Shown: positions 19,289-63,318, counted from the first letter of the stretch. The stretch: 64,000 bases of DNA from Candidatus Aminicenantes bacterium (GCA_963705895.1 OY970122.1:1634774-1698773); one strand, 5' to 3'. Made by a program: numbers and translations. Notes: generated from the letters alone by a model not told the origin.

Positions 19289-19388
19289 ATTCGTCCTCGG
19301 TCGGGAAGACGGGCCAGGCGGTAGGGATTCCGCTTTTCGGGGGCGACCCTAGGCCCGAATTTTATTTTCAAGCATAGGATCCAATTTA

Positions 19389-20600: not shown

Positions 20601-20829
20601 ACTTTCCTAATCAAAGCGAACGTTTCATTCTTCGGATCTTTTATCATAATCAGTAATTTTATTTGATACTCCGATGACGGAGTTGTCAATGACCCGTGGA
20701 GGCCAATTCTAGTTTCTTGCCTAAACCTAGACCGAAATGAGGTGAAAATGAGCGAAGGTAGAGGATTGGTTAGAAATTGGGACCGAAGCGCATTTGCTTG
20801 GTCTATCGGGGTTTTCTTAGTAATTGAAT

Positions 20830-20877
20830 TGGTGGAGCTGACCAGGATCGAACTGGCGACCTCTTGAATGCCATTCA
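20830..20877 (-). repeat. Partial 3' copy of tRNA-Ala (48 nt, exact); att-like direct repeat adjacent to the integrase
   Basis: Identical to tRNA-Ala positions ~29-76. It diverges 5' of the anticodon loop. Confidence 0.85.
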
Positions 20878-20892
20878 CCTTGTTCATTTCGG

Positions 20893-21969
20893 TTAATTGT
20901 ATGCGGACGAGCGAGTTGCGGGAGTTTCCGCTTTCGGTTTATCGACCCGAATGACGGGATTTATGCCAGCATAGAGCGCCTCGAACTTCTCCATCCCGGC
21001 TTGCATATCCTCGAAGGTCTCATGGACATAGCGCATCGTCATCTCGGTCTTGGAGTGACCGAGGATCTTCTGGAGGGCCACGACGTCGTGCGTCGCCCGG
21101 TAGTACCAGGTGGCGAAGGTATGTCTCAGGTCATGGAAGCGCAGCCCTTTGATCTCCGCCCGCCGGCAAGCCGTATGGAATGAGGTCTTGACGTCCTTCA
21201 CGCCGAACACAAACGCATCCCGGCGAGGGATCGCCTTCAGGATCTCGACCACCACAGAATCCATCGGGACCTCTCTCGGTTTTTTACTCTTCGCCTCCGC
21301 GGCTAGGATGGTGATGAACCTTTCTCTAAACCTCACGTTCTCCCACCTCAGCCCCAGGACCTCGCCCTTCCTCATCCCGGTGTGCAGGGCGACAAGCAGG
21401 ATGGGTTTCAGGCTGGCGCTGGCGCACTCCACTAATCGTCCCCGCTCCCCGCTGGTAAGGATGCGCTCCGGTTTCGGTTCATCATCCTTCTCTATATCCG
21501 CGGTGGGGTCGTCGGTGATCTTCTTCCAGCGGAGAGCCTTCTGGCAGATCGCCCGCAAACAACTAAGCTCCCGGTTGACCGAGCATGGAGAGGCTTTTGT
21601 TGCTTTCCTAGCAGCCTGATACCTTTCCACAAACTCGGGCGTAATATCCTGAAGCGACTTCCCCTTGAGTGCCGGGACCAAGTGAACGCGGATCGAGTTC
21701 TCATAGCTCGCCATCGTGTTGGGGCGGATCTTTCCCTTCTCTGCGAGGAGTTTGAGGTAGTCCTCGGCGAAGTCCTCAAACAGGACCGGCTTCATGGCCG
21801 GCGCAGGGTTCTCAAAAATGCCGTGCTTTTCTTTTTTAAGATGTTCGAGCTTCTCATACATCGCCCGCTCTGTGTCCGCCCTGGAAAGCCCGGTGATGAC
21901 CCGATAGCGACGATAATCGAAGGTTAAGTCATAGAACCATTGGCCTTTATCGTTTTTGCTGACTTTCAT
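20893..21969 (-). CDS. Tyrosine recombinase / phage integrase
   Basis: C-terminal catalytic motifs (HDLRHTFAT...LGHSKTEMTMRYVH) and an N-terminal SAM-like domain. ATG at 21969 overlaps the stop of the upstream small ORF. Confidence 0.85.
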   Translation of the reverse strand: MKVSKNDKGQWFYDLTFDYRRYRVITGLSRADTERAMYEKLEHLKKEKHGIFENPAPAMKPVLFEDFAEDYLKLLAEKGKIRPNTMASYENSIRVHLVPALKGKSLQDITPEFVERYQAARKATKASPCSVNRELSCLRAICQKALRWKKITDDPTADIEKDDEPKPERILTSGERGRLVECASASLKPILLVALHTGMRKGEVLGLRWENVRFRERFITILAAEAKSKKPREVPMDSVVVEILKAIPRRDAFVFGVKDVKTSFHTACRRAEIKGLRFHDLRHTFATWYYRATHDVVALQKILGHSKTEMTMRYVHETFEDMQAGMEKFEALYAGINPVIRVDKPKAETPATRSSAYN

Positions 21970-22175
21970 TCTTCCCTCCAATCATCTGTGAAGAACCTCA
22001 GCTTATTCAATATCGAGCGCCATCTGCGCTGGATCTTTTTAAAATCTGCCTCTGATAAATTCTTGGGCGGTTCGGCCGGGATTTCACGAAGAGCATCTTC
22101 CAGTTTAAAATAATAGAGGAGCGCTCGACCCCGCATTATGAAGTTCTCCAGATTATCGTTCTTGCTGACCTTCAT
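21966..22175 (-). CDS. Small hypothetical protein, translationally coupled to int
   Basis: 69 aa. ATGA overlaps at both ends. The N-terminus MKVSKND duplicates the integrase N-terminus through a ~20-nt direct repeat. Confidence 0.35.
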   Translation of the reverse strand: MKVSKNDNLENFIMRGRALLYYFKLEDALREIPAEPPKNLSEADFKKIQRRWRSILNKLRFFTDDWREE

Positions 22176-29056: not shown

Positions 29057-29296
29057 ATCTGCCTCCCTTCGCAGTCCTAAAAGAAAGGCCGGGGCAAGCG
29101 GCTAGGGAGGACCGCCTTTCGCTGATCAAGCTAGCCCCGGATTTAATTTGACGCTCGCATGCCGGCGTTGTCAATGACGGGATTTTTGCCATAAATTGGA
29201 AATTGAGCGGAAAACAGGCGAAATTGATAGAGTGTTGATAGGCAGGGGTCGAGGTCGTTATTACTCGATACGACGTGGTTTTCTTAGCAAAGTGGT

Positions 29297-29372
<76 letters not shown>

Positions 29373-35136: not shown

Positions 35137-35168
35137 GAACGCGGTGGTGGGCCTGGCCAGACTCGAAC
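35137..35168 (-). repeat. Partial 3' copy of tRNA-Arg(CCU) (T-arm plus acceptor, 32 nt, with CCA)
   Basis: gggcctggccagactcgaactggcgacctcc is identical to the 3' end of the tRNA at 63054-63128. Confidence 0.7.
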
Positions 35169-35337
35169 TGGCGACCTCCAGCTAAAACGAGATTAGTGAC
35201 TGTTCCTGTCCCAGAGCCGGAGCCGGATTTGATGACCGACCTCGAATGAGTGGCGCTCGCGGGCTAAGATCAGGCTCCATACCCAGAGGGCGATTCGTGC
35301 CTCATTTGGGGATATTTAAGAATTTTCTTTCGTCCTG

Positions 35338-36492
35338 TTATTTCAAGTTGTAGGAGAAGATAGCGCCTAAGTCTGAAGCACCTCCAAAAATCGTCATTCC
35401 ATACAATGTAGAGCCTTTTATTATTAGTGAACCCAATGGATAGGCTCCATCCGATGGATAGCCGGCAAACCAGTGAAGCAGCGCGAATCCCGTGCCGTTC
35501 GTATTGGTTTTGAATATCGTGCCATAACCGCTGGTGCCGCCCTGATACGTCATTCCGTACAACGTGGAGCCTTTGAGTATCAGTGAAGCCCATGGAAACG
35601 CTCCATCTATTGTGCCGCCGGCAAACGAATGAAGCAGCGCGAACCCGGTGCCTTTCGTATTGATCTTGAATATCGTGCCATCATCACTGGTGCCGCCATA
35701 AGCAGTCATTCCGTACAACGTGGAGCCTTTTAATATCACAGAGACATCTGGATAGGCTCCATCCGATGGATAGCCGGCAAATGAGTGAAGCAGCGCGAAC
35801 CCCGAGCCGTTCGTATTAATCTTGAATATCGTGCCTGCATCACTAGTGCCGCCGTTATGAGTCAATCCGTACAGCGTGGAGCCTTTTAATATCAGCGACC
35901 CATTTGGCGCCAGCCCATCCGATGGATAGCCGGCAAATGAGTGAAGCAGCGCGAACCCCGTGCCGTTCGTATTAATCTTGAATATCGTGCCTGCATCACT
36001 AGTGCCGCCGTTATGAGTCAATCCATACAACGTGGAGCCTTTGACTATCAGCGACCCACGTGGATATCCCCCATCCGATGGGCCGCCGGCAAACGAGTGA
36101 AGCAGCTCGAATTCCGTCCCGTTCGTATTGATTTTAAATATCGTGCCTTCGCCGTAAGCGCCGCCCTCATTCGTCATTCCATATAGCGTGGAGCCTTTGA
36201 GTATCAGTGAACCCCATGGATACGCTCCATCCGTTGTGCCGCCGGCAAAGAAGTGAAGGACAGCGAATCCCGTGCCGTTCGTATTAATCTTGAATATCGT
36301 GCCGTTGTTGCTGGCGCCGCCGAATTCGGTCATTCCATACAACTTGGAGCCTTTTAAGGTCAGTGAGCCTATTGGATCTTCTCCATCCGTTGTGTCGCCG
36401 GCAAACGAGTGAAGCAAGTTGAATTGTGCTTGAAGAGATGTAGCCAGGAAAAACATGAAAAGAAATACCCAACCAAATCGCTTTTTCGACAT
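35338..36492 (-). CDS. Secreted tandem-repeat protein, 7 x ~52-aa repeats (Gloeo_Verruco/'GloVer'-like beta-propeller), paralog A
   Basis: Signal peptide MSKKRFGWVFLFMFFLATSLQAQ, then 7 repeats of LLHSFAGGxSDGxxPxGSLILKGSTLYGMTxxGGTSDxGTIFKINTNGTGF. Confidence 0.8.
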   Translation of the reverse strand: MSKKRFGWVFLFMFFLATSLQAQFNLLHSFAGDTTDGEDPIGSLTLKGSKLYGMTEFGGASNNGTIFKINTNGTGFAVLHFFAGGTTDGAYPWGSLILKGSTLYGMTNEGGAYGEGTIFKINTNGTEFELLHSFAGGPSDGGYPRGSLIVKGSTLYGLTHNGGTSDAGTIFKINTNGTGFALLHSFAGYPSDGLAPNGSLILKGSTLYGLTHNGGTSDAGTIFKINTNGSGFALLHSFAGYPSDGAYPDVSVILKGSTLYGMTAYGGTSDDGTIFKINTKGTGFALLHSFAGGTIDGAFPWASLILKGSTLYGMTYQGGTSGYGTIFKTNTNGTGFALLHWFAGYPSDGAYPLGSLIIKGSTLYGMTIFGGASDLGAIFSYNLK

Positions 36493-36744
36493 TTTTTGTC
36501 CCTCCCTTATGCCCGAACCAGAGGATTTGCTGACCTATTGAAAATAATAATATAGCGGACCGCAAAATAATGTCAAGGCCGGTGGGATTGCAGATTTCAG
36601 AATTTGCAGACGTTTCCCGAACTCAAAATCAGCATGCGAATTCGCAACTTGTTTGTGAACCCGCGAACTCCATCTGCGGACTTCAGCCCCTAAAGTGAAT
36701 CCGTCACAATATGATCTTCTTATGGAATCCTATTGCGGAGGCCT

Positions 36745-37902
36745 TTATTTCAGGCTGTAGGCGAAGATAGCGCCTAAGTCTGAAGCACCTCCATGGATCG
36801 TCATTCCGTACAATGTGGAGCCCTTGAGAATCAGTGACTCATATGGATATTCCCCATCCGATGGGCCGCCGGTAAAGGAGTGAAGCAGCGCGTATCCCGT
36901 GCTGTTCGTATTGATCTTGAATATCGTGCCTAAGTCGCTGCTGCCGCCCCCAAAAGTTATTCCGTAAAACACGGAGCCCTTGAGAATCAGTGACCCCCTT
37001 GGCCCTTCCCCATCCAATGGGCCGCCAGCAAACGAATAAAGCAGCACGAACCCGCTGGCGTTCGTTTTTATCTTGAATAGCGTACCACCGCCGTAGGCGC
37101 CGCTTGAGTAAGTCATTCCGTACAACGCGGAGCCTTTTAATATCAGTGATCCATATGGGATTGCTCCATCCGTAACGCCGCCGGCAAACGAATGAAGCAA
37201 CACGAACCCGCTGCCGTTCGTATTGATCTTGAATATCGTGCCCCAGTTGCTGGTGCCGCCCCCAGAAGTCATTCCGTACAACACAGAGCCCTTGAGAATC
37301 AGTGACTCAAAATATGGATATTTCCCATCTGATGCGCCGCCGGCAAACGAATGAAGCACCGCGAACCCGCTGCCGTTCGTATTGATCTTGAATATCGTAC
37401 CGTTACCAAGAGTGCCGCCGAATTCGGTCATTCCATACAGCGCGGAGCCTTTTAATATCAGTGAGCCTTCTGGACTTGCTCCATCCGACGCGCCGCCGGC
37501 AAACGAATGAAGCAACACGAACCCGCTGCCGTTCGTATTGACCTTGAATATCGTACCACCGCCGTAGGCGCCGCCTGAGTAAGTCATTCCGTACAATGTG
37601 GAGCCCTTGAGAATAAGTGACCCATATGGCTCGCTCCCATCCGATGCGCCCCCGGCAAACGAATGAAGCAGCACGAACCCGGTGCCGTTCGTATTGACCT
37701 TGAATATCGTACCACCGCCGTAGGTGCCGCCATGATATGTCATTCCGTACATTGTGGAGCCCTTAAGAATCAGTGACCCGAACGGATATTGCCCATCCGC
37801 TGTGGCGCCGGCAAACGAGTGAAGCAAGTTGATTTGTGCCTGAAGAGATGCAGCCAGGAAAAACAGGAAAAGAAATACCCAGCCAAATTGCTTTTTCAAC
37901 AT
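36745..37902 (-). CDS. Secreted 7-repeat GloVer-like protein, paralog B
   Basis: Same architecture (MLKKQFGWVFLFLFFLAASLQAQ plus 7 repeats). Confidence 0.8.
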   Translation of the reverse strand: MLKKQFGWVFLFLFFLAASLQAQINLLHSFAGATADGQYPFGSLILKGSTMYGMTYHGGTYGGGTIFKVNTNGTGFVLLHSFAGGASDGSEPYGSLILKGSTLYGMTYSGGAYGGGTIFKVNTNGSGFVLLHSFAGGASDGASPEGSLILKGSALYGMTEFGGTLGNGTIFKINTNGSGFAVLHSFAGGASDGKYPYFESLILKGSVLYGMTSGGGTSNWGTIFKINTNGSGFVLLHSFAGGVTDGAIPYGSLILKGSALYGMTYSSGAYGGGTLFKIKTNASGFVLLYSFAGGPLDGEGPRGSLILKGSVFYGITFGGGSSDLGTIFKINTNSTGYALLHSFTGGPSDGEYPYESLILKGSTLYGMTIHGGASDLGAIFAYSLK

Positions 37903-38272: not shown

Positions 38273-38315
38273 TGGGCCTGGCCAGACTCGAACTGGCGAC
38301 CTCCGGATTAGGAAT
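38273..38315 (-). repeat. Partial 3' copy of tRNA-Arg(CCU) (from anticodon loop to 3' end, 43 nt)
   Basis: tgggcctggccagactcgaactggcgacctccggattaggaat is identical to the 3' portion of tRNA-Arg(CCU). Confidence 0.75.
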
Positions 38316-38535
38316 GCACTGCATCAATTCCCTGAAAATACGCTAACTATTTATTTATCATTGAGTTATTCTATTGGACCGTAAGCCTATTTTGGTTCAG
38401 GTGTCAACTTTTTGTCGTGTTGGATCCGGGATTTCTTGCGTTTTTCATTGGAAGCCAAACAGCCAAGAAACTCACATTATGCCTGGACCATTATTTAGGG
38501 ATGAAGTCCTGCTTGGGGCAAACGGTGGTGTCTGT

Positions 38536-49580: not shown

Positions 49581-49685
49581 ATTCCATCCCCTAACCCGGC
49601 TGGTCTAAGCATACTGAAATGAATAAATGAGGTCAAGGTGAGAATTGGACTGTAAGTCCAGAGTGCGGAACATCGTGGACTTCGA

Positions 49686-49958
49686 TTATCGCCTTGACCC
49701 TATTGAGGCTTCGGGCGTCAGTTCAATAACGGCACGTTGGTGAGTGTCAACTTTTTGACGGGACGGGTCCAGAATCTCGCCCAATCTGAGGACAGCGAGC
49801 CTCATGTTCTCGGGTGTCGGGTGAGCATAGCGCATCGTCATTTGGATTGAGGCATGGCCGAGGATCTTCGAGACCGTTACAAGGTCAACCCCGGCTTTCA
49901 ACTCTCCCAGATGTTTCTCATTATACCTGGACCGATTTAAGGGGGGCAAGTCAGACAT
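49686..49958 (-). pseudogene. Tyrosine recombinase C-terminal fragment fused to a repeat-element sequence
   Basis: Contains only the extreme C-terminal integrase motif (ILGHASIQMTMRYAHPTPENM). The 5' ~90 nt of the ORF (49858-49945) is a copy of the tail-repeat 3' end. Confidence 0.6.
49858..49945 (+). repeat. Tail-repeat copy W (3' ~88 nt of the ~370-nt tail element)
   Basis: ccccggctttcaactctcccagatgtttctcattatacctggaccgatttaagggggg aligns with 58975-59045 and 60700-60775. Confidence 0.6.
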
Positions 49959-50072
49959 TCCTATCCCTTAAGCCCTCCCTTTTCCTTTTATTGATATCTC
50001 TCATGTGCCGGTGATATATATTTGCATGATGGGAAGTCAGAATTCCCTTTCCTGAAGAGAGAGGCCGGGTCA

Positions 50073-52049
50073 ATGCCGGAAGAGATACAAAACAAAGTCC
50101 GCCGGAATAACAAATTCCTTTTAGTCGCCCTTGTCGCGATGTTAGGTCTGTCCACGGCATTTTTTAGGCTGGGCTCCAAAGGCTTATGGGGCGATGAAGT
50201 CTGGCAGGTCTATTGGTCTCAACAACAATCTTTTTGGCAGACGCTCGCACGCTTTACGATATTTAACGAAGCGAATAGCCTTCGCCATCTAAGCGATAGC
50301 AAGCTCCCCGTCCTGGTGACGAGCGTCGATAACTATCCGCTGCATTTTCTTTGGACGCATCTCACCACCAAGCTCGGGACAAGTGAATTCTGGGCCCGGT
50401 TCCCTTCGGCGTTTCTCGGCGCAGCCAGCGTTCTAATTATGTTCCTGCTCGGCCGCAAGCTGTTCGGGCAAAGAGCCGGGCTCACGGCGGCCGTGCTTAT
50501 GGCTCTTGCACCTTATCATGTCTGGTATGCCCAAGATGCCCGGCCCTATTCCGCGCTAGTCTTTTATTCGTTGCTATCCCTTTATTTTTTTGCGGAGATT
50601 CTGGAGCGGCCTTCGTGGAAAGCCTGGCTGGGTTTTGTGCTGGCGACAACCCTGAACTTCTATAATCATATGCTGGCATCTTTGCCTTTTATTACGGAAT
50701 TGATGGTCAGCGCAGGGATAGGAATAATCTGGTGGCTACGAGCTCGATCTACAAAGCTGCAGACTGATGTTTCAGAACGCCACAAGATCCGGAGGTCCTT
50801 GTGGATGGCTTGGAGCGGCCTTTTCGTTGCGGCCGTCATCGCTCTTCCCGTCCTCGCAAAAGCGATTATTCTCATCAAACTCCAGGGCCTTGTGCCGGGC
50901 CAAAACACGCGTTTTCAGTTGACATCTCAGTTCCTGGGAAGTCTGTTTAGTTCCTTCGGGGCAGGGAACGGGACACTTTTATGGGCGTTCATTTTGTTGT
51001 CGATTATTGGATTGGGAACGGCGTTGTTCCGCCGTCCTTGGTTTGGGATCTTGACCTTAGTTTGGATAGCATTTCCATTAGTCTCTCTCGGGATAATGCA
51101 GCCGCGCCGCGTCGTTCCCTTGCGCTACCTTCTTTTTATCCAACCGCTTTATCTTCTGACGATTGCTTTGGGATGTCACAGGGTCATAGAAGCATTGGGC
51201 CGTCTCAAGGATATTGTGTTGCCCAAGATGTCCTTGGGGAGCAAGGTCTGGAGTTGGATGCCGACCGGCATTGTCGTGAGCGTTATTTTTTTCACCGTGT
51301 TCCCCCTGACATGGAAAGGTTACAGGGTCGAGAAGATCAACGATTGGAGCGGGCTATGTTCTTACTTGCACTGCCGGGTTGAACAGGGCGACATCATTGT
51401 CGGAGAAGATTATGCATCTTACGTTATGGACTGGAGCTACAGAAAAAGAAACGGCGTCGCCCTTGTTAGACCGGACCGCTATTCTCTGGATGAATTGAGA
51501 GACATGGGCCGGAATGTCTGGTATCTCGCTTTAGATGACCATCCCCCGTATACGCGGGCCGCTTTCTTGCAGAGGAACTTCGAGGAAACTCCTAAGTCCG
51601 CCTATGCCAAATCGGACTTGCTGCCTCCCGATTATAACTGCGGCGGCCGGATATTTTTCCCCAATTTCGAACTACCGGTGAGACTTTACAGTCACAAAGC
51701 GGCATTTGCACCATCACTGATAGAATTCAAGGACTGGCCCGGTTCCAAGAATTGGCCGAATTACGTCCTAATCGAACCCAGGGATCACTATGACGTTGTC
51801 CTTCGTCTGCCGGCAGCCGCTTCCAGAATCCTATTGATCACTATGTGGGATTTTGTGGAAAGAGATCTAGTCCTGTATCTCAATGACAGGCTGATCGGCG
51901 CGATCAAGGCGGGCAAGAGCGGCGGCCGATGGGTTACTTTTCGCTTTCCGCTTTCCCCCTCCGACCCCGATACGTTTCTGCTGAAAATGATGAATCCCGG
52001 TTCGAAGGTTTCCTGCGTCAGCAGGGTCGAAGTCCAATATGCCCAGTGA
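50073..52049 (+). CDS. Polytopic membrane glycosyltransferase of the GT39/GT83 (PMT/ArnT-like) superfamily
   Basis: N-terminal ~400 aa with 10+ TM segments in a PMT_2/ArnT-like pattern (LGSKGLWGDEVWQVYWS...), then a soluble C-terminal domain. Start chosen at ATG 50073 (the upstream start in the track is TTG). Confidence 0.6.
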   Translation: MPEEIQNKVRRNNKFLLVALVAMLGLSTAFFRLGSKGLWGDEVWQVYWSQQQSFWQTLARFTIFNEANSLRHLSDSKLPVLVTSVDNYPLHFLWTHLTTKLGTSEFWARFPSAFLGAASVLIMFLLGRKLFGQRAGLTAAVLMALAPYHVWYAQDARPYSALVFYSLLSLYFFAEILERPSWKAWLGFVLATTLNFYNHMLASLPFITELMVSAGIGIIWWLRARSTKLQTDVSERHKIRRSLWMAWSGLFVAAVIALPVLAKAIILIKLQGLVPGQNTRFQLTSQFLGSLFSSFGAGNGTLLWAFILLSIIGLGTALFRRPWFGILTLVWIAFPLVSLGIMQPRRVVPLRYLLFIQPLYLLTIALGCHRVIEALGRLKDIVLPKMSLGSKVWSWMPTGIVVSVIFFTVFPLTWKGYRVEKINDWSGLCSYLHCRVEQGDIIVGEDYASYVMDWSYRKRNGVALVRPDRYSLDELRDMGRNVWYLALDDHPPYTRAAFLQRNFEETPKSAYAKSDLLPPDYNCGGRIFFPNFELPVRLYSHKAAFAPSLIEFKDWPGSKNWPNYVLIEPRDHYDVVLRLPAAASRILLITMWDFVERDLVLYLNDRLIGAIKAGKSGGRWVTFRFPLSPSDPDTFLLKMMNPGSKVSCVSRVEVQYAQ

Positions 52050-52145
52050 TCGCTCGGCTACCCCCTTATCGTCTCAATTCCCGCCACTCTTGGCCTGCAT
52101 CGAATTATTTACAGGCATGGCCTTTGGACTAGCAATCCGGGGGCC
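52050..52145 (+). repeat. Tail-repeat copy X (internal ~95-nt portion)
   Basis: cgtctcaattcccgccact...ttacaggcatggcctttggact matches 60625-60700. Confidence 0.55.
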
Positions 52146-52227
52146 GCTTGAATTGCTACAAAACGACACCATGGACATGCTATGGTAAAGATATGGTCAA
52201 TTTAGGGAATTCGAGATATGCCAGGTC

Positions 52228-52256
52228 TTGACATTTTCTTGTGGCCCGGCATATTA
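52228..52256 (+). promoter_or_regulatory. Conserved sigma70-like promoter of the repeat-protein cassette (also at ~54679, ~56045, ~57462, ~59170, and on the minus strand upstream of 36492 and 37902)
   Basis: TTGACA, 17 nt, ATATTA/TATTAT. Followed by a ~50-nt conserved 5'UTR (aatcaatagggcgatcaagctt...) and a GGGGAGGG RBS before ATG. Confidence 0.45.
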
Positions 52257-52311
52257 TTTTAATCAATAGGGCGATCAAGCTTATAATTTAAGCAAAGGGG
52301 AGGGAAAATCA

Positions 52312-53484
52312 ATGTCGAAAAAGCGATTTGGGTGGGTATTTCTTTTGCTGTTCTTCCTGGCTGCATCTCTTCAAGCACAAATCAACTTGCTTCATTCGTT
52401 TGCCGGGGCCACATCGGATGGAGCACATCCATGGGGTTCACTGATATTCAAAGGCTCCACGTTGTACGGAATGACTTCGCATGGCGGCACGAGCGACAAC
52501 GGCACGATATTCAAGACCAACACGAACGGCACGAAGTTCGCCGTGCTTCACGCGTTTGCCGGCGGCGCTGCTGATGGAGCAATTCCATGCGACTCATTGA
52601 TTCTCAAAGGCTCCACATTGTACGGGATGACTGAACGTGGCGGCCCCAGCGACCTAGGTACGATATTCAAGGTCAATACAAACGGCGCAGGGTTCGCGCT
52701 GCTTCATTCCTTTGCTGGGGGCGCATCCGATGGATCCCTTCCATCTATGGCGAATCTGATTCTCAAAGGCTCCACATTGTACGGAATGACCCCGTATGGC
52801 GGCACGAACGGCAACGGAACAATATTTAGGATTAATACGAATGGCAAGGGATTTGAGCTGCTTCACTCGTTTGCCGGGGGCGTAACAGACGGACAATTTC
52901 CAGAAGGTTCACTGATATTAAGCCGCTCCACATTGTACGGCACGACTCATAACGGCGGCTCCTCTTACAACGGCACGATATTCAAGGTCAATACGGACGG
53001 CAGTGGGTTCATGCTGCTTCACTCGTTTACCGGGGCCACATCGGATGGAGCGTATCCATGGCGTTCACTGCTACTTAAAGGCTCCACGTTGTATGGAATA
53101 ACAATGGACGGCGGCATCAATGATCTCGGCACGGTATTCAAGGTCAATACGAACGGCACTGGGTTCGTGCTGCTTCATTCGTTTGCTGGCGGCGCATCAG
53201 ATGGGAAATATCCATTAGGATCACTGATTCTTAGAGGCTCGATATTGTACGGAATGACCCCGGACGGCGGTACCAATGATATGGGCACGATATTTATTAT
53301 CAACACGGACGGCACGGGATTCGATTTAATTTATTCCTTCGCCGGCTATCCATCGGATGGAGCCTATCCTTATGGGTCACTGATAGAAAAGGGCGTCAAG
53401 TTCTACGGAATAACTTATGGGGGAGGCGCTTCAGATAATGGCGTCATCTTCTCCTATAGCCTGAAATATGGACCTGCGAAATAG
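52312..53484 (+). CDS. Secreted 7-repeat GloVer-like protein, paralog C
   Basis: MSKKRFGWVFLLLFFLAASLQAQ plus 7 repeats. Ends with a short extension (SYSLKYGPAK). Confidence 0.8.
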   Translation: MSKKRFGWVFLLLFFLAASLQAQINLLHSFAGATSDGAHPWGSLIFKGSTLYGMTSHGGTSDNGTIFKTNTNGTKFAVLHAFAGGAADGAIPCDSLILKGSTLYGMTERGGPSDLGTIFKVNTNGAGFALLHSFAGGASDGSLPSMANLILKGSTLYGMTPYGGTNGNGTIFRINTNGKGFELLHSFAGGVTDGQFPEGSLILSRSTLYGTTHNGGSSYNGTIFKVNTDGSGFMLLHSFTGATSDGAYPWRSLLLKGSTLYGITMDGGINDLGTVFKVNTNGTGFVLLHSFAGGASDGKYPLGSLILRGSILYGMTPDGGTNDMGTIFIINTDGTGFDLIYSFAGYPSDGAYPYGSLIEKGVKFYGITYGGGASDNGVIFSYSLKYGPAK

Positions 53485-53639
53485 GATTTCCTAAGAGAAT
53501 CCTATCGTGACGAACTCGGCCCCAGGGGTATAGCCCGCAGAGGCAGTTCGTAGATAGAACGAATTTACAGACCGAATTAGAGTTTGGCAAGTGTCCGCAA
53601 ATTCAGAATTCTGAAATTTCACCACCAACCCCTCTCTTC

Positions 53640-54672
53640 TAAAACTGACAGACATGGTTTACACGTTGGGCTTTCTTTTATAGGCTTATTTCGATTAGCA
53701 AAGGAGAAGCCCCATGGTCAGCTACGATCCCGTCAAAAATCAAAGATGGCGTCTGGGTATCATGCGTCATTATGAGGAGCTGGGTCATAATGCTTCGAAG
53801 ACATGTCGATACTTTGGGATCAGTCGATGCGCTTTTTATAGATGGCGGAGGAGATATCTTGAGCTCGGAGAGCAGGGTCTCTTGGACCGTTCTCGTAGAC
53901 CTATCCGTAGCCCCAGGGCAACGAGACCCGAGATCATCGGCAAGATTATCTATCTGAGGCAAACCTATCATTTTGGACCATGGAAGATCATGGTTTATCT
54001 TGAACGCTATCACGATATGCATGTCAGCAGCTCCGGGATCTGGAGGATCCTTAAGAAACTTCAGATGAATCGCCTACCTTCAAATCAGCGCTATGCAAGG
54101 CACTCGGAACGCTGGAAGAGATACGAGAAGCCCATGCCCGGGCACAGAGTTCAGGTAGATGTTAAATTTTTGGAGAAGATACCGGGCGCCAGGAAACGGT
54201 ACTACCAATATACAGCGATTGACGATTGCACCAGGCTCCGCGTTTTAAGGATTTATGAAAATAATACCCAGAAATCTGCGATTCAGTTTATTGATTATGC
54301 CCTGTCGCGCTTACCCTTTAGGACCGAAGTGGTCCAAACAGATAATGGCTCCGAGTTTCAAGGGCAGTTCCATTGGCATGTTCTCGATAAGGGGATAAAT
54401 CATGTATATATAAAACCACGTCGACCTAGATTGAATGGGAAGGTTGAACGAAGTCATCGGATTGACGAGGAGGAGTTTTATCGAATGCTGAATGGGGTCG
54501 TCATCGACGATTCGGGTCTATTCAACGAGAAGCTGAGGGAATGGGAAGACTTCTACAACTACGATCGGCCCCATTCGGCACTAGGGGGAAAGACCCCTTA
54601 TGAACGCTTTCGCGAAAGAGTCGGGCTCGAGTGTAACCAATCATGATCAGTCCTACACAACCTTGACATTAT
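53640..54672 (+). mobile_element. IS481-family insertion sequence (approximate ends)
   Basis: Single transposase ORF with imperfect terminal inverted repeats (GACAGACATGGTTTACAC / rc GATCATGATTGGTTACAC). Inserted in the conserved spacer between paralogs C and D. A possible short target duplication (CAACC) lies at both junctions. Confidence 0.55.
53714..54646 (+). CDS. IS481-family transposase (HTH plus DDE integrase core)
   Basis: N-terminal HTH (CRYFGISRCAFYRWRRRY), then the rve core with D...D...E (QVDVKF...QTDNGSEF...RSHRIDEEEF). Confidence 0.85.
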   Translation: MVSYDPVKNQRWRLGIMRHYEELGHNASKTCRYFGISRCAFYRWRRRYLELGEQGLLDRSRRPIRSPRATRPEIIGKIIYLRQTYHFGPWKIMVYLERYHDMHVSSSGIWRILKKLQMNRLPSNQRYARHSERWKRYEKPMPGHRVQVDVKFLEKIPGARKRYYQYTAIDDCTRLRVLRIYENNTQKSAIQFIDYALSRLPFRTEVVQTDNGSEFQGQFHWHVLDKGINHVYIKPRRPRLNGKVERSHRIDEEEFYRMLNGVVIDDSGLFNEKLREWEDFYNYDRPHSALGGKTPYERFRERVGLECNQS

Positions 54673-54745
54673 TATGCGGCCCAACATATTATTTTTATCA
54701 ATAGGGCGATAAAGCTTATTATTTAGGCCTTAAGGAGGGGAATCG

Positions 54746-55891
54746 ATGTCGAAAAAGCGATTTGGCTGGGTTTTTCTTTTCCTGTTTTTCCTGGTTACAT
54801 CTCTTCAGGCACAAATCAACCTACTTCACTCGTTTGCCGGCGGCGCTACGGATGGAGCCTACCCAGCAGGCTCACTGATATTAAAGGGCTCCACGTTATA
54901 CGGAATGACATCTAATGGCGGCACCAGCAACTTTGGCATGATATTCAAGATCAACACGAACGGCACCGGGTTCGCACTGCTTCACTCGTTTGCCGGCGGC
55001 GCTACGGATGGAGACTACCCAGAAGGCTCACTGATATTAAAAGGCTCCACATTGTATGGAATGACCGTAGGAGGCGGTCCCTATGACTACGGTACGATAT
55101 TCAAGATCAATACGAACGGCACCGGGTTCGTGCTGCTTCACTCGTTTGCCGGCGGCGCTACGGATGGAGAGTACCCAAAAGGCTCACTGATATTAAAAGG
55201 CTCCGTGTTGTACGGAATGACGAATGGCGGCGGCAGCAGCGATGTAGGCACGTTATTCAAGATCAATAGGAACGGCAGCGAGTTTGTGCTGCTTCATTCG
55301 TTTGCCGGCGCAGCAGACGGAGCAAGTCCATGTGATTCACTGATATTAAAAGGCTCCGCGTTGTACGGAATGACTGAAATCGGTGGCACCAGCAACTGGG
55401 GCACGATATTCAAGATCAATACGAACGGCAGCGGGTTCGCGCTGCTTCACACGTTTACCGGGACCGCATCCGATGGGCAAATGCCATATGGGTCGCTAAT
55501 TCTCAAAGGCTCTGCGATGTACGGAATCACCCAATACGGCGGCGCCTCTGGGGATGGCGCGATATTCAAGATCAATACAAACGGCACGGGGTTCGTGCTG
55601 CTTCACTCCTTTATCGGCACGGATGGACTGTATCCATTTGGATCACCGATTATCAAAGGCTCCACGTTGTACGGGATGGCATGGAACGGCGGCGCCAGCA
55701 GCTTTGGCACGATATTCAAGATGAACAAAGACGGCACGGGATTCGTGCTGCTTCACTCATTTGCCGGGGCCACATCGGATGGAGCGTATCCCCATGGATC
55801 ACTGATACTCAAGGGTTCCACGTTGTACGGAATGACGAATGTGGGAGGGGCTTCAAATAAAGGCGCTATCCTCTCCTACAACCTGAAATAA
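54746..55891 (+). CDS. Secreted 7-repeat GloVer-like protein, paralog D
   Basis: Same signal peptide and repeat architecture. Confidence 0.8.
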   Translation: MSKKRFGWVFLFLFFLVTSLQAQINLLHSFAGGATDGAYPAGSLILKGSTLYGMTSNGGTSNFGMIFKINTNGTGFALLHSFAGGATDGDYPEGSLILKGSTLYGMTVGGGPYDYGTIFKINTNGTGFVLLHSFAGGATDGEYPKGSLILKGSVLYGMTNGGGSSDVGTLFKINRNGSEFVLLHSFAGAADGASPCDSLILKGSALYGMTEIGGTSNWGTIFKINTNGSGFALLHTFTGTASDGQMPYGSLILKGSAMYGITQYGGASGDGAIFKINTNGTGFVLLHSFIGTDGLYPFGSPIIKGSTLYGMAWNGGASSFGTIFKMNKDGTGFVLLHSFAGATSDGAYPHGSLILKGSTLYGMTNVGGASNKGAILSYNLK

Positions 55892-56134
55892 AGGCGCACG
55901 AAATAGCATTCCATAGAAAATCATATTGTGGCAAATTCGCCCTTGGGGCTATAGTCCGCAGAGGTAGTTAATAGACAGAACGAACTTGCAGACCGAATTC
56001 AAGTCCGGGATGCGTTTGCAAATTCAGCATTCTGCAATTTCCCCACCAGCCTTGACATTATTTTTCGGGCCGACATATTATTTCAATCAATAGGGCGATA
56101 AAGCTTATTATTTAAGCATTAAGGAGGGGAATAG

Positions 56135-57292
56135 ATGTTAAAAAAGCAATTTGGGTGGGTTTTTCTTTTCTTGTTTTCCCTGGCCGTATCTCTTCAAGCA
56201 CAAATGATTGTTCTTCACTCGTTCGCTGGCGCCACAGCGGATGGGGGATATCCAAGTGGATCACTGATTTCAAGCGGCTCCACGTTGTACGGAATGACGG
56301 ATTGGGGCGGCGCCGACAGTGATGGCACGATATTCAAGATCAATAAGGACGGCACGGGATACGCTGTGCTTCATTCGTTTGCCGGCGGCGCATCGGATGG
56401 GAGAGCTCCATATTTGGCGTCACTGATTCTCAAAGGCTCCACATTATACGGAACGACACTTAATGGCGGCACTGGGGATGGCGGCACGATATTCAAGATC
56501 AATAGGAACGGCACGGGATTCGCGGTGCTTCACTCTTTTGTCGGCGGAGCATCGGATGGGGTTCTTCCCATTGGGTCACTGATTATAAAAGGCTCCGCGT
56601 TGTACGGAATGACTCAATACGGCGGCACCGCCAATATGGGCACGATATTCAAGATCAATAAGGACGGCAGCGGGTTCGTGCTGCTTCACTCTTTTGCCGG
56701 AGGTGCCTCGGATGGGGATTACCCATATGGGTCGCTGATTCTCAAAGGCTCCGCGTTTTACGGAATGACTCAATACGGCGGCACCAGCAACTGGGGTACG
56801 ATATTCAAGATCAATACAAACGGCACAGGATTCGCCCTGCTTCACTGGTTTGCCGGCGGCGCATCGGATGGAAGATACCCACAGGGGTCTCTAATAGCCA
56901 AAGGCATGACGTTGTACGGGATGACGAATGGGGGCGGCACCAGCGATATCGGCACGATATTCAAAATCAATAAGGATGGCACAGGATTCGCCCTGCTTCA
57001 CTCGTTTGCCGGCCCCACATTGGATGGGCAATGGCCAGCTGGAGCACTGGTAGTAAAAGGCGCCACGCTGTACGGATTGACTCAAAACGGCGGCAGCACT
57101 GGATTAGGTGTGCTATTCAAGATCAACACGAACGGCACAGGATTCGCCCTGCTTCACTCGTTTGCCGGCCCCACATTGGATGGGTCATGGCCAGATGGGG
57201 CGCTGATTTTGAAAGGCTTCATGTCATACGGGCTGACGTATCGGGGAGGTGCTTCAGACATGGGCACTATCTTCTCTTTCAGCCTGAAATAA
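56135..57292 (+). CDS. Secreted 7-repeat GloVer-like protein, paralog E
   Basis: MLKKQFGWVFLFLFSLAVSLQAQ plus 7 repeats. Confidence 0.8.
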   Translation: MLKKQFGWVFLFLFSLAVSLQAQMIVLHSFAGATADGGYPSGSLISSGSTLYGMTDWGGADSDGTIFKINKDGTGYAVLHSFAGGASDGRAPYLASLILKGSTLYGTTLNGGTGDGGTIFKINRNGTGFAVLHSFVGGASDGVLPIGSLIIKGSALYGMTQYGGTANMGTIFKINKDGSGFVLLHSFAGGASDGDYPYGSLILKGSAFYGMTQYGGTSNWGTIFKINTNGTGFALLHWFAGGASDGRYPQGSLIAKGMTLYGMTNGGGTSDIGTIFKINKDGTGFALLHSFAGPTLDGQWPAGALVVKGATLYGLTQNGGSTGLGVLFKINTNGTGFALLHSFAGPTLDGSWPDGALILKGFMSYGLTYRGGASDMGTIFSFSLK

Positions 57293-57418
57293 AGGCGCAC
57301 GAAATAGCATTCCATTAGAAAATCATATTGTGACAAATTCGCCCCTTGGGCTATAGTCCGCAGAGGCAGTTCGCAGACAGAACGAACTTGCAGACCGAAT
57401 TCGAGTTTGGCAAGTATC

Positions 57419-57436
57419 CGCAAATTCTGAAGTTTG
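57419..57436 (+). promoter_or_regulatory. Palindromic operator-like site GCAAATTCTGAAGTTTGC upstream of the cassette promoter (variants at ~53600 and ~56020, and on the minus strand at ~36570)
   Basis: Imperfect 18-nt inverted repeat ~25 nt upstream of the -35. The 53600 copy carries the perfect palindrome TCAGAATTCTGA. Confidence 0.35.
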
Positions 57437-57535
57437 CAATCTCCCCCGGCCTTGACATTATTTTGCGGCCCGGCATATTATTTTAATCAATAGGGCGATC
57501 AAGCTAATAATTTAAGCAAAGGGGAGGGAAAATCA

Positions 57536-58693
57536 ATGTCGAAAAAGCGATTTGGGTGGGTATTTCTTTTCCTGTTTTTTCTGGCCGTATCTCTTCAGGC
57601 ACAAATCAACTTGCTTCACTCGTTTGCCGGCGGAGCATCGGATGGGGAATGGCCATGCGGGTCGCCGATATTAAAAGGCTACACGTTGTACGGAATGACG
57701 TCTGGGGGCGGCACCAGCGACCTAGGCACGATATTCAAGATCAATAGGGACGGCTCGGGATTCGCGCTGCTTCATTCGTTTGCCGGCGGCGCATCGGATG
57801 GAGCAGGTCCAAGTAGATCACTGATATTAAAAGGCTCCACATTGTACGGGATGACGTATGGGGGCGGCGGCAGCGATCTTGGAACGATATTCAAGATCAA
57901 TAGGGACGGCACGGGATTCGCGCTGCTTCATTCTTTTGGCGGTGGCGCATTGGATGGAGAATATCCCTGGGGGTCCCTGATATTAAAAGGCTCCGCGTTG
58001 TACGGAATGACGAATTATGGCAATTCCAGTGATGGCGGCACGATATTCAAGATCAATACAAACGGCGCGGGATACATGTTGCTACATTCGTTTGCCGGTG
58101 CGCCAACGGATGGGATGCATCCCCGGGGGTCACTGATTCTCAAAAGCACCTCGTTGTACGGAATGACTGTGGGCGGCGGCTCCAGCCTTGGTGGCACGAT
58201 ATTCAAGATCAATACGAACGGGACAGGATTCGCGCTGCTTCATTCGTTTTCCGGCGGCGCGTCGGATGGGGAAGGTCCGTGGGATTCTCTGATAGTAAAA
58301 GGCTCCACGCTATACGGAATGGTATATTGGGGCGGCACTAGCGATAAAGGTACGATATTCAAGATCAATGCGAACGGCACGGGGTTCACGCTGCTTCATT
58401 CATTTTCCGGCGACGCAACAGATGGAGCGTATCCAAATGGCTCACTGATATTAAAAAGCTCCACGTCCTACGGAATGACGTATGGGGGCGGCGCCAGCAA
58501 CTATGGCACGATATTCAAGGTCAACACGAACGGCACGGGATTCGAGCTGCTTCACTCGTTTCAAGGCGGTGCTACGGATGGGGCATATCCATATTTTGGG
58601 TCACTGATAGCCAAAGGCTCCACGTTGTACGGGATGACGAATGGTGGAGGGGCTTCAGACTTAGGCGTTATCTTCTCCTTCAACTTGAAATAA
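57536..58693 (+). CDS. Secreted 7-repeat GloVer-like protein, paralog F
   Basis: Same architecture. Confidence 0.8.
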   Translation: MSKKRFGWVFLFLFFLAVSLQAQINLLHSFAGGASDGEWPCGSPILKGYTLYGMTSGGGTSDLGTIFKINRDGSGFALLHSFAGGASDGAGPSRSLILKGSTLYGMTYGGGGSDLGTIFKINRDGTGFALLHSFGGGALDGEYPWGSLILKGSALYGMTNYGNSSDGGTIFKINTNGAGYMLLHSFAGAPTDGMHPRGSLILKSTSLYGMTVGGGSSLGGTIFKINTNGTGFALLHSFSGGASDGEGPWDSLIVKGSTLYGMVYWGGTSDKGTIFKINANGTGFTLLHSFSGDATDGAYPNGSLILKSSTSYGMTYGGGASNYGTIFKVNTNGTGFELLHSFQGGATDGAYPYFGSLIAKGSTLYGMTNGGGASDLGVIFSFNLK

Positions 58694-59045
58694 AGGCCAT
58701 CGAAATAGGATTCCATAAGAGAATCATATCGTGACGGATTCGCCCCCGGAGTTGTAGTTCGTAACTAGAGCTCGTCCCCTTTTTTAGGGCGATCAAAATT
58801 CTGTGCCCGCTTGATAGATAGAATAGGGCCGTCCCGCCTCACCTGGCGGTCTCCCCCAGGCCTCAAATGATGAGCAGAACGGAACGGCCCCAGATAGGCC
58901 CCGGCCCGTCTCATTTCCCGCCATTTTCGCTATTTACCAGCCTTTTTACAGGCTTGCCCCGCGGACTAGCTATCCGCCGGCCAGCGGAAAATTGCCCCCG
59001 GTCTTTAACTCTTCCTGGTTTTTCTCATAATATCTGGACCGATTT
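58694..59045 (+). repeat. Tail-repeat copy Y (~350 nt, full)
   Basis: Aligns along its length with 60412-60775. Ends ...ctggaccgatttgaagtagggg. Confidence 0.65.
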
Positions 59046-59253
59046 GAAGTAGGGGCAATCACTTGTCAAGGACAGCTCGGGGGCGATTTGATAGAGGCCC
59101 GGCTAAACTTCCGCCCGTTTTGTTGTCTATAGATGGCAAATGATTATCCCGCCCGTCGAGCAAAGCCTGAAGCGCTTGACATCGTCTTCTTTTTGGCATA
59201 TTAATTCAGCCAAAGAGCGGCAAAACTCAACCAAAACAAAGGAGAAAAACGAA

Positions 59254-60411
59254 ATGTCGAAAAAGCGATTTGGGTGGATATTTCTTTTCATGTTTTTCCT
59301 GGCTGCATCTCTTCAAGCACAAATCAACTTGCTTCACTCGTTTGCCGGCGGCGCTACGGATGGGAAGTACCCATATGCGGCGCCAGTATTAAAAGGTTCC
59401 ATGCTGTATGGAGTGACAATTAATGGCGGCACCAGCGACCTAGGCACGATATTTGCGATTAATACGAACGGCACGGGATTCGTTGTGCTTCACTCATTCG
59501 CCGGCGGGGCATCAGATGGCGCAGATCCGTTGGGCTCGTTGATATTAAAAGGCTCCACGTTGTATGGGATGACTTCGGGGGGCGGCACCTACAGCTATGG
59601 CACGATATTCAAGGTCAATACGAACGGCACGGGATTCGCGCTGCTTCACACGTTTACCGGCGGCGCATCGGATGGAGCAGGTCCATATGGCTCGCTGATA
59701 TTAAAAGGCTCCGCGTTGTACGGGATGACTTATATCGGCGGCAGCGCTGCATATGGCACGATATTTAAGATCAATACGAACGGTACGGGATTCGCGCTGC
59801 TTCACACGTTTATCGGCGGCGCATCGGATGGGAAATACCCATTTTTTGCGTCATTGATTCTCAAAGGCTCCGTGTTGTACGGAATGACGCAAAAGGGCGG
59901 CAGCAGTGATGATGGCACGATATTTAAGATCAATACGAACGGCACGGGATTCGCGCTGCTTCACACGTTTATCGGCGGCGCATCGGATGGGAAATACCCG
60001 TACGGGTCACTGAGAGCCAAAGGCTCTGCCTTGTACGGAATGACATTCGGGGGCGGCACCAGCGACTCAGGTACGATATTCAAGGTCAACACGAGCGGGA
60101 CGTTATTCGCGCTGCTCCACTCGTTCGCCGGCGGTGCATCGGATGGGAAATCTCCAATTGGGTCACTGGTCCTTAAAGGCTCCAAAATATACGGAATGAC
60201 CGAAAAAGGCGGCAATAGCGACCTAGGCACGATATTCACGATCACGACGGTCGGCACGGGATTCGAGCTCATTCATTCGTTTGCCGGTGGCGCATCGGAT
60301 GGAGCGGTTCCAAATGGCTCGCTGATATTAAAAGGCTCCGCGTTGTTCGGAACGGCGAATGGGGGAGGGGCTTCAAACTACGGCGTGATATTCTCCCTCA
60401 GCTTGAAATAA
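59254..60411 (+). CDS. Secreted 7-repeat GloVer-like protein, paralog G
   Basis: Start at ATG 59254 (MSKKRFGWIFLF), with an AAGGAG RBS. The upstream in-frame extension in the ORF track is rejected. Confidence 0.8.
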   Translation: MSKKRFGWIFLFMFFLAASLQAQINLLHSFAGGATDGKYPYAAPVLKGSMLYGVTINGGTSDLGTIFAINTNGTGFVVLHSFAGGASDGADPLGSLILKGSTLYGMTSGGGTYSYGTIFKVNTNGTGFALLHTFTGGASDGAGPYGSLILKGSALYGMTYIGGSAAYGTIFKINTNGTGFALLHTFIGGASDGKYPFFASLILKGSVLYGMTQKGGSSDDGTIFKINTNGTGFALLHTFIGGASDGKYPYGSLRAKGSALYGMTFGGGTSDSGTIFKVNTSGTLFALLHSFAGGASDGKSPIGSLVLKGSKIYGMTEKGGNSDLGTIFTITTVGTGFELIHSFAGGASDGAVPNGSLILKGSALFGTANGGGASNYGVIFSLSLK

Positions 60412-60775
60412 AGGCCTGCAAAATAGGATTCCATAAGAGAATTATATCGTGACGAACTCGCCCCGGGGTTGTAGTTCTTAACTAGAGTTCTTCCCCTTTT
60501 TTAGGGCGGTCAAAATTCTGTGCAAGCTTGATAGAATAGGGCCGCCCCACCTCTCCGGGTCGGTCTGGGCCCAGAGCTCAAATTGAGCAGGACGGAGCGG
60601 CCCTAAATAGGCTCCGGCCCGTCTCAATTCCCGCCACTATCGGCCCGCGCCGAGTTTTTTACAGGCATGGCCTTTGGACTCCTCATCCGCCGGCCGGCGG
60701 AAAATAGCCCCGGCCTCTAACTCTCCTAGGTTTTTCCCGATTAGACCTGGACCGATTTAAGGGGGGCTGGTCACG
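60412..60775 (+). repeat. Tail-repeat copy Z (~365 nt, full)
   Basis: Contains the GC palindrome CCGCCGGCCGGCGG. Ends ...ctggaccgatttaagggggg. Confidence 0.65.
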
Positions 60776-62560: not shown

Positions 62561-63053
62561 GATAGCCCCCCTTCCGTCTTAGACTGACCCACTTATAGCA
62601 CAACTCCGAACGCGCTCAAAGAGCGAAGGCCTGATTTCTGGAATCGGGCCTGTCGGGAGAATGCTCGTTCTGACCTGCCCCCCCAAAAATCGGTCCAGGT
62701 ATAATGTTAGGAAAGTACCTGGAAGAAGGGAGTCGATATGGGCTGACCTGCCCTTTTTTATTGTACCAACTGTGAAGTTAGTATTCTAGTCTCCTGACCT
62801 TCTGGGGCGGGCATTTGGGAACCACACCCTCTCCTAATTTCTAAATAGCCAGGCTTTGCAAATTTTTTTCGCACATTTTGCGGAGATTGGGAACTTAAAA
62901 CAGAGCACCTCAGCCACTCTTGTTCCCATACCCCCCTGCCCCTTTTGCTTCCGCCATATTTGTGCCAAAACAAGATAGAAAATTGCGGACTTCTGTGGAA
63001 TAGGATTGAATCTAGCTTTTGCCTATCTGAAGGCAATATAAGGGAATCTTAAA

Positions 63054-63128
63054 TGGGCCTGGCCAGACTCGAACTGGCGACCTCCGGATTAGGAATCCAT
63101 TGCTCTATCCGTACTGAGCTACAGGCCC
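63054..63128 (-). tRNA. tRNA-Arg (anticodon CCU)
   Basis: The reverse complement is GGGCCTGTAGCTCAGTACGGATAGAGCAATGGATTCCTAATCCGGAGGTCGCCAGTTCGAGTCTGGCCAGGCCCA. Canonical anticodon loop TTCCTAA (U33, A37). CCA is not encoded. One A.G mismatch at the top of the anticodon stem. Confidence 0.8.
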
Positions 63129-63318
63129 ACAAGCGAAGCCAATATAGCGCAAAGGCCGGCATTTATCAATTTGGAACGGACCAAGCGCACGCGCGGCTGA
63201 TATGTGGGATAAATTTCGGGTGATCCTGCGCTCCCCTTTCGTGAAGCATTGGATGACTCGATCAGCCGCATTGACAGCACTTCATGCTGGGGACTATATT
63301 GCCTGAAGGGGTCAGAGC

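Follow-up and report, generated by a model that had tools for sequence, protein, structure and literature searches.

Repeated gene tails and an integrase remnant in a Candidatus Aminicenantes bacterium carry IS3-family left ends and are probably decayed transposon scars

A stretch of 64,000 nt of DNA from a Candidatus Aminicenantes bacterium (hereafter the window, which all searches of the organism's own genome covered) contains a tandem array of paralogous genes for GloVer-repeat proteins (TIGR03803). Two of these genes, paralogs F and G, are followed by similar non-coding tails, and the end of the tails recurs beside a truncated tyrosine-recombinase (integrase) gene. An earlier note on this DNA had interpreted the repeats as attC-like sites or recombination hotspots of a cassette-shuffling system. 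Our analysis suggests, with a probability that we put at roughly 80%, that the finding consists of decayed scars of an IS3-family insertion sequence (IS) within a horizontally acquired low-GC gene block, with no cassette mechanism. The observation itself was partly confirmed, being real in part, and the earlier interpretation was partly supported.

The identity of the shared end was established from its copies in other genomes. When up to 3 mismatches are allowed, the window contains the motif CTGGACCGATTTNNGGGGGG 4 times, where 0.08 would be expected. Scanning GTDB (one genome per species) with the query CCTGGACCGATTTNNGGGGGG returned 28 loci, about 21 of them with the full tip, mostly in Aminicenantes metagenome-assembled genomes (MAGs) and otherwise in Thermodesulfobacteriota, Chloroflexi, Nitrospinaceae and Acidobacteriota; many matches were at contig ends, as expected of a repeated mobile element. 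When the loci were aligned on the motif, conservation broke off abruptly after ...GGGGGGCAGGTCA, i.e. right after GGCAGGTCA. Read on the opposite strand, the shared end is TGACCTGCCCCCC..AAATCGGTCCAGGTATAAT, and at several loci a ribosome-binding site and an open reading frame (ORF) beginning MGRVRFTPEQIIGKLREA follow about 35 nt on. The product of this frame, OrfA, starts MGRVRFTPEQI... and has thousands of 92-aa relatives with PF01527. Contigs of these relatives yielded intact elements of 1207 bp with the ends TGACCTGCCCCC...GGGGGTAGGTCA, carrying orfA (92 aa, HTH) and orfB (258 aa, DDE/rve) between IS407-like tips TGACCTGCCCCC...GGGGGCAGGTCA; intact copies in differing flanks were 99.9-100% identical to one another, and such copies are present in Aminicenantes as well as in other phyla. 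OrfB scored 225 bits against the NCBIfam IS3 model (cut-off 160 bits). Both transposase genes are present in the reference copies (loci L029-L035), where the left inverted repeat (IRL) is 63 nt upstream of orfA. The published ends of IS407A and ISPa32 read TGACCTGCCCCC (PMC2877748, PMC7378034).

Compared with the intact IS over its positions 1-52 or 1-69, the window copies show 77-88% identity, and an IRL profile, built without any window sequence and then run on the window, detected four clear copies (E 1.7e-13 to 4.3e-6). We conclude that ...ATTATACCTGGACCGATTTAAGGGGGGCAAGTCA represents positions 1-52 of an IS3-family element of 1207 bp, namely its left terminal inverted repeat and promoter/leader. 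The following remnants were located:

49902-49953, minus strand: left-end remnant beside the integrase stub; IS positions 1-52, tip at 49953, 86.5% identity to the intact IS, IRL profile E 1.7e-13
~59010-59061, minus strand: left-end remnant in the F tail; IRL profile E 4.3e-6
60722-60773, minus strand: left-end remnant in the G tail; IRL profile E 1e-10
62671-62743, plus strand: fourth left-end remnant, near the tRNA-Arg gene and inverted with respect to the others; IS positions 1 to ~72, up to the orfA codons ATG GGC, E 8.3e-13
62744-62811, minus strand: right-end (right inverted repeat, IRR) remnant of another copy; IS 3'-end profile positions 110-177, E 6.8e-5
38468-38489, minus strand: fifth, weak and decayed left-end copy; IRL profile (nhmmer) E 0.01

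In every copy the homology ends exactly at the IS tip, and the DNA beyond the four tips is unique. The remnant beside the stub comprises the IRL TGACTTGCCCCCCTTAAATCGGTCCAGG and a TATAAT box (49920-49925, with counterparts at 59029-59034 and 60740-60745), forming a promoter-like TTGCCC-18-TATAAT (10/12). The fourth remnant has its CTGGACCGATTTNNGGGGGG motif at 62679-62698, on the opposite strand, and is abutted by the tip (62744) of the IRR remnant in what looks like an IS-into-IS insertion. A tblastn search of the window with OrfA and OrfB found only an unrelated IS481-family gene (53714-54646), and no transposase of the IS3 element is left; since orfA and orfB are missing from between the ends, the window copies are fragments and not elements. 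No second inverted repeat was found in the F tail, in the G tail or at the stub, the sole IRR remnant (62744-62811) belonging to a different, oppositely oriented copy. The copies listed in the earlier note are real, but its tally lacked the terminal piece at 62671-62743 and the decayed one at 38468-38489. The outcome that its author had named as speaking against the cassette idea, a common repeat unassociated with recombinases or cassette genes, is what was found for the shared terminal piece: an end of a DDE transposon (IS3), present in many unrelated genomes and contexts, and not an attC-like or hotspot site.

The inner side of the remnants provided further evidence for this assignment. In the 49.9-kb, F and G copies the IS homology ends at position 52, after which all three continue GTTRRAGVCCGGGG:

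49888-49901, minus strand: 14-nt joint GTTGAAAGCCGGGG, matching the orfB 3' segment TTGGAGGCCAGGG; shared by the copies in tails F and G

A metagenome scan for the IRL followed by GGAGAGTT located an identical IRL(52)::orfB joint in a JGI metagenome (L048, 4140-4310), leading into the orfB 3' end (...GTTGAAGGCCCTGGTGGTGATAGAAAACTGG...). Because the same joint there runs into the orfB 3' end, the 14 nt derive from orfB of an internally deleted IS, so that the piece in all three window copies is the joint of such an element, recurring in an unrelated metagenome. Deletion derivatives of the IS do exist, since a Syntrophobacteraceae MAG carries a 98-nt IRL+IRR mini-element (L021, 227-324). In the stub, the joint overlaps the integrase codons L-K-A-G (GAA GCY GGY GTT in relatives), which constitutes microhomology.

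The earlier note described a repeated piece that takes the place of the 5' region of a tyrosine-recombinase gene, of which only a C-terminal stub survives, and this was borne out:

49686-49958, minus strand: 90-aa ORF, integrase C-terminus only at residues 21-90 (49686-49898), catalytic-Tyr motif RYAH included

Against Pfam Phage_integrase (PF00589, cut-off 27.1 bits) the stub matched only positions 142-170 of 172, the last 29, through residues 21-49 (29.8 bits); residues 1-20 are read-through of the IS remnant and not integrase. An integrase-family profile matched 49898-49719 with 106 bits and the corresponding nhmmer DNA profile 49902-49687 with an E-value of 6.6e-60, the integrase homology beginning only at 49898, and relatives of the stub read ...HDLRHTAASKMIEAGVDL... 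The tail end does recur here, as 65 nt at 49889-49953 (83% to G, E 2e-13) and not as the 88 nt at 49858-49945 first proposed. The stub groups with the integrase family found beside a tRNA-Arg attachment repeat at 38.3 kb and not with integron integrases; against the integron-integrase model TIGR02249 it scored 15.7 bits (cut-off 265).

Relatives of the stub were drawn from a set of 5.8 billion proteins, of which 120 are listed (P0121-P0240; loci L037-L046). Among these listed matches the closest relatives are all 42-130 aa long, and many are 64-72-aa ORFs in long contigs with the same internal Met start (MIEAGVDL), so the subfamily seems to survive mostly as C-terminal pseudogene stubs. The short relatives are pseudogenes or partial genes. 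The DNA upstream of them has no IS end but consists of decayed coding sequence for the integrase, and a recurrent IS::integrase junction in other genomes was accordingly rejected. Within the window, a second junction of this kind was detected:

38399-38489, minus strand: second, more decayed IS-left-end::integrase-3'-end module; IRL at 38468-38489 (E 0.01), integrase at 38399-38435 (E 0.009)

The integrase part of this module, which is ~80 nt from the tRNA-Arg repeat, corresponds to the last codons of the stub's family. Because this remnant too precedes an IS left end, both remnants of the stub's integrase family in the window abut the IS.

The tails of F and G were then dissected. Tail F (58694-59045) and tail G (60412-60758) share 80.0% identity over 355 columns (E 2.6e-83), with homology extending farther, to 59061 and 60773. 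The duplication reported earlier thus stands, but the tails are not one '370-nt' unit; each is a mosaic of three parts, one of which has a further partial copy:

58694-58779, plus strand: F tail part 1, common GloVer 3' flank; recognised by alignment with the DNA that follows A, C, D and the paralog at 36.7 kb
58780-58995, plus strand: F tail part 2, the 'middle'; 78% to G 60497-60707, stops in three minus-strand frames
58996-59061, minus strand: F tail part 3, IS3 left-end remnant plus 14-nt joint; tip ~59061, IRL profile E 4.3e-6, 79.6% to the intact IS
60412-60496, plus strand: G tail part 1, common GloVer 3' flank; identified by alignment to the paralog flanks
60497-60707, plus strand: G tail part 2, the 'middle'; holds a palindrome (60686-60701), a terminator-like hairpin (60640-60653) and a further hairpin (60537-60548 / 60594-60605)
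60708-60773, minus strand: G tail part 3, IS3 left-end remnant plus 14-nt joint; 88.5% to IS 1-52, IRL profile E 1e-10
52070-52146, plus strand: 77-nt core of the 'middle', here 3' of the gene (50022-52049) for a PMT_2/ArnT-like glycosyltransferase

The first ~85 nt are the 3' flank common to all seven GloVer paralogs, including the one at 36.7 kb (36697-36744), and are followed by ~25 nt resembling the DNA just upstream of the next paralog's ribosome-binding site. Only the ~200 nt after this (58780-58995; 60497-60707), with the 77-nt core inside, are specific to F and G, and the terminal ~66 nt are the portion held in common with the integrase stub. The IS tip of the G tail, at 60773, coincides with the right-hand limit of the low-GC block in the GC profile. 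The central piece said to follow the ArnT-like gene at 52050-52145 does recur there, as the 77-nt core at 52070-52146 (83% to G 60620-60696, 70% to F). The GC palindrome attributed to the element is perfect in G (60686-60701) but not in F, which reads CCGCCGGCCAGCGG. Translation of the minus strand, the one that carries the IS remnant and the integrase in their reading direction, gave stops in each of the three frames in every copy, in agreement, for this strand, with the claim that the tails hold no conserved ORF.

These data bear directly on the proposal that the tails are attC-like or hotspot sites at which a tyrosine recombinase shuffled GloVer gene cassettes. The repeats do sit after genes of a paralog array, and one copy abuts a tyrosine-recombinase remnant. 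However, the piece beside the recombinase is the DDE-transposon end described above, the recombinase is far below the integron-integrase cut-off, and a search of the tails for an attC-type palindrome found only inverted arms of 10-15 nt. Folding the tails, the check that the earlier note had asked for, gave no unusually stable structure (minimum free energy z-scores against shuffled sequence of -1.25, -1.92 and -1.22). A strong promoter-like site, TTGACA-18-TATTAT (11/12, a consensus match alone), lies upstream of each of the genes A, C, D and F, at 52228, 54663, 56052 and 57452, respectively. The element is carried by just 2 of the 7 paralogs; between the others, and between A, C, D and F in units of 1401 nt, lies ordinary duplicated intergenic DNA. 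With no attC palindrome, no IntI and genes that have promoter-like sites of their own, we give the cassette-shuffling system practically no credence.

Could the tails instead be complete elements? On this account the F and G elements (~265 nt; ~58791-59061 and ~60508-60773) would each be a non-autonomous mini-IS, similar to a miniature inverted-repeat transposable element (MITE), built from the IRL, a divergent version of the IS 3' end and a degenerate IRR and moved in trans by an IS3 transposase encoded elsewhere. The L048 derivative with its identical joint and the L021 mini-element speak for this account, the between-copy homology stops exactly at the IS tip, and by eye the short collinear anchors GGCGGGAAT, CCAGA.ACC and AGAGGTGG occur at roughly IS-like spacing. 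Yet the inner end lacks an IRL partner, offering only a 15-nt, 73% complementary arm that lies inside the flank common to all paralogs; the tails were not matched by the IS 3'-end profile and aligned to IS 3' ends no better than shuffles did (p 0.08-0.63). No target-site duplication was seen, the DNA past the tip does not resume an interrupted paralog upstream region, and a scan of JGI metagenome contigs for the 77-nt core gave no further copy. A complete mini-IS is therefore unlikely in our judgement.

Several other origins of the tails were considered and rejected. For the 'middle', in-frame anchors seen by eye (EAG...SK...GHA...RRA...LG) had pointed to a decayed integrase 3' end, but Smith-Waterman alignment against shuffles was not significant, neither the family protein profile (six-frame) nor the nhmmer DNA profile returned anything, and BLOSUM scores against shuffles gave p 0.10-0.55. 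As an IS 3' end or mini-IS it fared no better, its alignments to L030, L011 and L048 not being significant and the IS 3'-end profile matching 62744-62811 alone. A degenerate IS end 3' of the 77-nt core (52147-52220) amounted to a weak likeness that the IRL profile did not pick up. A plain tandem duplication from F to G with arbitrary ends was discarded, as its right end falls on the IS tip and 59062-59165 is unique. Overall, the 'middle' has no significant match to integrase, IS or Rfam.

A GC-rich hairpin of 10-11 bp with a loop of 43-45 nt is kept in G (60537-60548 / 60594-60605) and in F (58826-58836 / 58880-58890), with a single compensatory C-G to T-A change. This raised the idea that the 'middle' is a functional cis element of the GloVer transcripts under selection, be it a structure in the 3' untranslated region, a terminator or a template for antisense RNA. 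The G tail also has a terminator-like hairpin followed by a T run (60640-60653), and the tails are 80% identical while the F and G coding regions are ~73% identical. The terminator-like site is, however, kept neither in F nor in the copy 3' of the glycosyltransferase gene; Rfam gave no relevant match for the tails or the 'middle', and the folding z-scores are those given above. The comparison involves two to three sequences, too few for covariation, and in every paralog conservation is higher in the flanks than in the repeat-rich interior. Neither the conserved hairpin nor the G-only terminator-like site suffices to claim function, and we regard such a role as very improbable.

Our preferred reading, decayed IS3 scars, can be formulated as a series of steps. 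An IS would have landed in or beside the integrase gene, and a deletion via GARGCCNGGGT microhomology would have taken the rest of the IS together with ~270 integrase codons; the 90-aa ORF, which continues through the inverted repeat, would have arisen by chance. Tails F and G could represent one such scar plus ~200 nt of flanking non-coding DNA, copied once as the tandem GloVer array grew, presumably otherwise by 1401-nt gene-plus-promoter units. The scars would now be inert, providing at most an inward-facing promoter (TTGCCC-18-TATAAT) antisense into F and G and short recombination homology, and a tyrosine-recombinase cassette mechanism would play no part.

Several points weigh against this reading. 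For the 'middle' of ~200 nt in tails F and G, including the 77-nt core, no source was identified. The 49.9-kb, F and G copies have both inner breakpoints in common, one at IS position 52 and the other where the 14-nt joint ends, while the DNA beyond differs, which argues that the scar was copied as a 66-nt module that now stands before differing DNA in the F and G tails. Finally, target-site duplications were not seen, even for the intact reference copies: the flanks of L029, L030, L031 and L033 showed no matching 3- or 4-mers. Several intact-copy contigs have one flank in common and not the other, which suggests recombinant or chimeric joins; for L032-L035 the one-flank sharing suggests IS-mediated recombination or assembly chimeras. 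In several of these metagenome contigs (L032-L035, ~3600-4600) an IS110-family element (DEDD_Tnp_IS110) lies directly against the IS3 right tip.

Alternatively, the 66-nt module might not be a passive scar but serve as the active end of a one-ended mini-IS, mobilised in trans, which landed again and again in or beside this integrase family and carried adjacent DNA with it. This would explain the shared inner breakpoints, the sharp tip boundaries and the 77-nt core after the glycosyltransferase gene, and both integrase-family remnants in the window (2/2) abut the module's IS end. If true, such an element would have disabled the integrase, fixed the GloVer/glycosyltransferase block in place and seeded antisense promoters behind GloVer genes. 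We consider it improbable all the same, and retain the reading of decayed IS3 scars.

The low-GC block of the finding lies between tRNA-Arg repeats, located as follows:

63053-63129, minus strand: intact tRNA-Arg(CCT) gene, anchor of the island array
38273-38315, minus strand: exact copy of the tRNA-Arg 3' part, 43 nt (attachment-site repeat)
35148-35179: exact copy of the tRNA-Arg 3' part, 32 nt

The 43-nt and 32-nt copies, 24.7 kb and 27.9 kb from the gene, are the signature of tandem islands at tRNA-Arg. GC content drops from ~0.60 to ~0.50 across roughly 49.65-60.8 kb, the interval of the finding. GC at 40-49.6 kb is backbone-like, which makes the region a mosaic instead of a single clean island. 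Beside the 49.7-kb stub no attachment repeat was detected, and repeats bounding 49.6-60.8 kb were rejected as none reached 10 nt. A tRNA-like sequence at 49632-49702 was also dismissed, being called by neither ARAGORN nor Rfam and having, by eye, a central hairpin loop of 3 nt. GloVer paralogs are present in both tRNA-Arg segments (minus strand, 35338-36492 and 36745-37902; plus strand, 52312-60411).

The IS481-family transposase gene noted above (53714-54646, plus strand; NF033577, 264 bits) interrupts the array between paralogs A and C and has no relation to the IS3 scars. In paralog G the longest ORF begins 38 codons (59140-59253) before the conserved signal-peptide start MSKKRFGW, and its true start is probably this one, at 59254; a promoter-like CTTGACATCGTC...GGCATATAA lies upstream of it. 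The window also holds a second island array, at tRNA-Ala(GGC) (10599-10649, 20807-20877 and 29297-29372), whose tRNA 3'-part copies show identities of 96% and 90%. A tyrosine integrase of 362 aa, which is intact (20893-21981, minus strand), ends 16 nt from the 20.8-kb tRNA-Ala copy, and beside it in the same island segment is a gene for a 403-aa ankyrin-repeat protein (19389-20600, minus strand). The int-alpA RNA (RF02996) has two matches above the gathering score, at 19295-19359 and 29075-29141, and GC is low (0.51-0.56) across 12-30 kb.

The value of these results is mainly corrective. What had been taken for a cassette site linked to a recombinase is an IS3-family end, and there is thus no case for following up the locus as a new integron-like system. 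The work also records an IS407-like element and its internally deleted derivatives across Aminicenantes and several other uncultured phyla, and a single window that shows an integrase family twice truncated by the same IS. It also places the tandem GloVer array, together with a GT-C glycosyltransferase, in a low-GC block beside tRNA-Arg repeats, which bears on how such surface-protein families spread and diversify.

Among known systems, integron attC sites and cassettes resemble the locus in having non-coding repeats 3' of some array genes near a tyrosine-recombinase remnant. They differ in that attC sites have an imperfect 55-140-nt palindrome (R''-L'' / L'-R') able to form a stable hairpin and a GTTRRRY core at the boundary and are served by an adjacent integron integrase, none of which was found at this locus, and in that integron cassettes are mostly promoterless ORFs under a common promoter, whereas genes A, C, D and F have promoter-like sites and the repeat is a transposon end. 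tRNA-linked islands with decayed integrases provide another parallel: tRNA-Arg 3' direct repeats are present, an integrase remnant lies by the 38.3-kb repeat, and the cargo at ~49.65-60.8 kb has deviant, low-GC composition, although the 49.7-kb stub lacks an attachment repeat and the 40-49.6 kb portion matches the backbone in GC. IS-derived MITEs and solo terminal repeats are similar in having a left end joined to the orfB 3' part by internal deletion, as at the L048 joint and in the L021 mini-element. Because the second inverted repeat is missing and no target duplications were seen, the window copies fall outside the MITE definition, which also calls for many full-length copies at unrelated sites; only two occur here, adjacent to each other.

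IS407-type IS3 elements are a further counterpart. IS407A of Burkholderia mallei and ISPa32 of Pseudomonas aeruginosa have the same terminal TGACCTGCCCCC... / ...GGGGGCAGGTCA (PMC2877748 Table 2; PMC7378034), and the reference copies are alike in their ~1.2-kb length, in the order orfA (HTH_Tnp_1) then orfB (rve) and in a promoter-like -10 box in or next to the IRL. Unlike these elements, the window has left-end fragments of 52-72 nt, one right-end fragment of 68 nt and no transposase; the hosts here are Aminicenantes-like bacteria and other uncultured phyla, and 4-bp target duplications, which are reported for IS407A, did not turn up. The window copies belong with the IS3 family in carrying a 5'-TG terminal inverted repeat homologous to the IRL of transposase-encoding elements.

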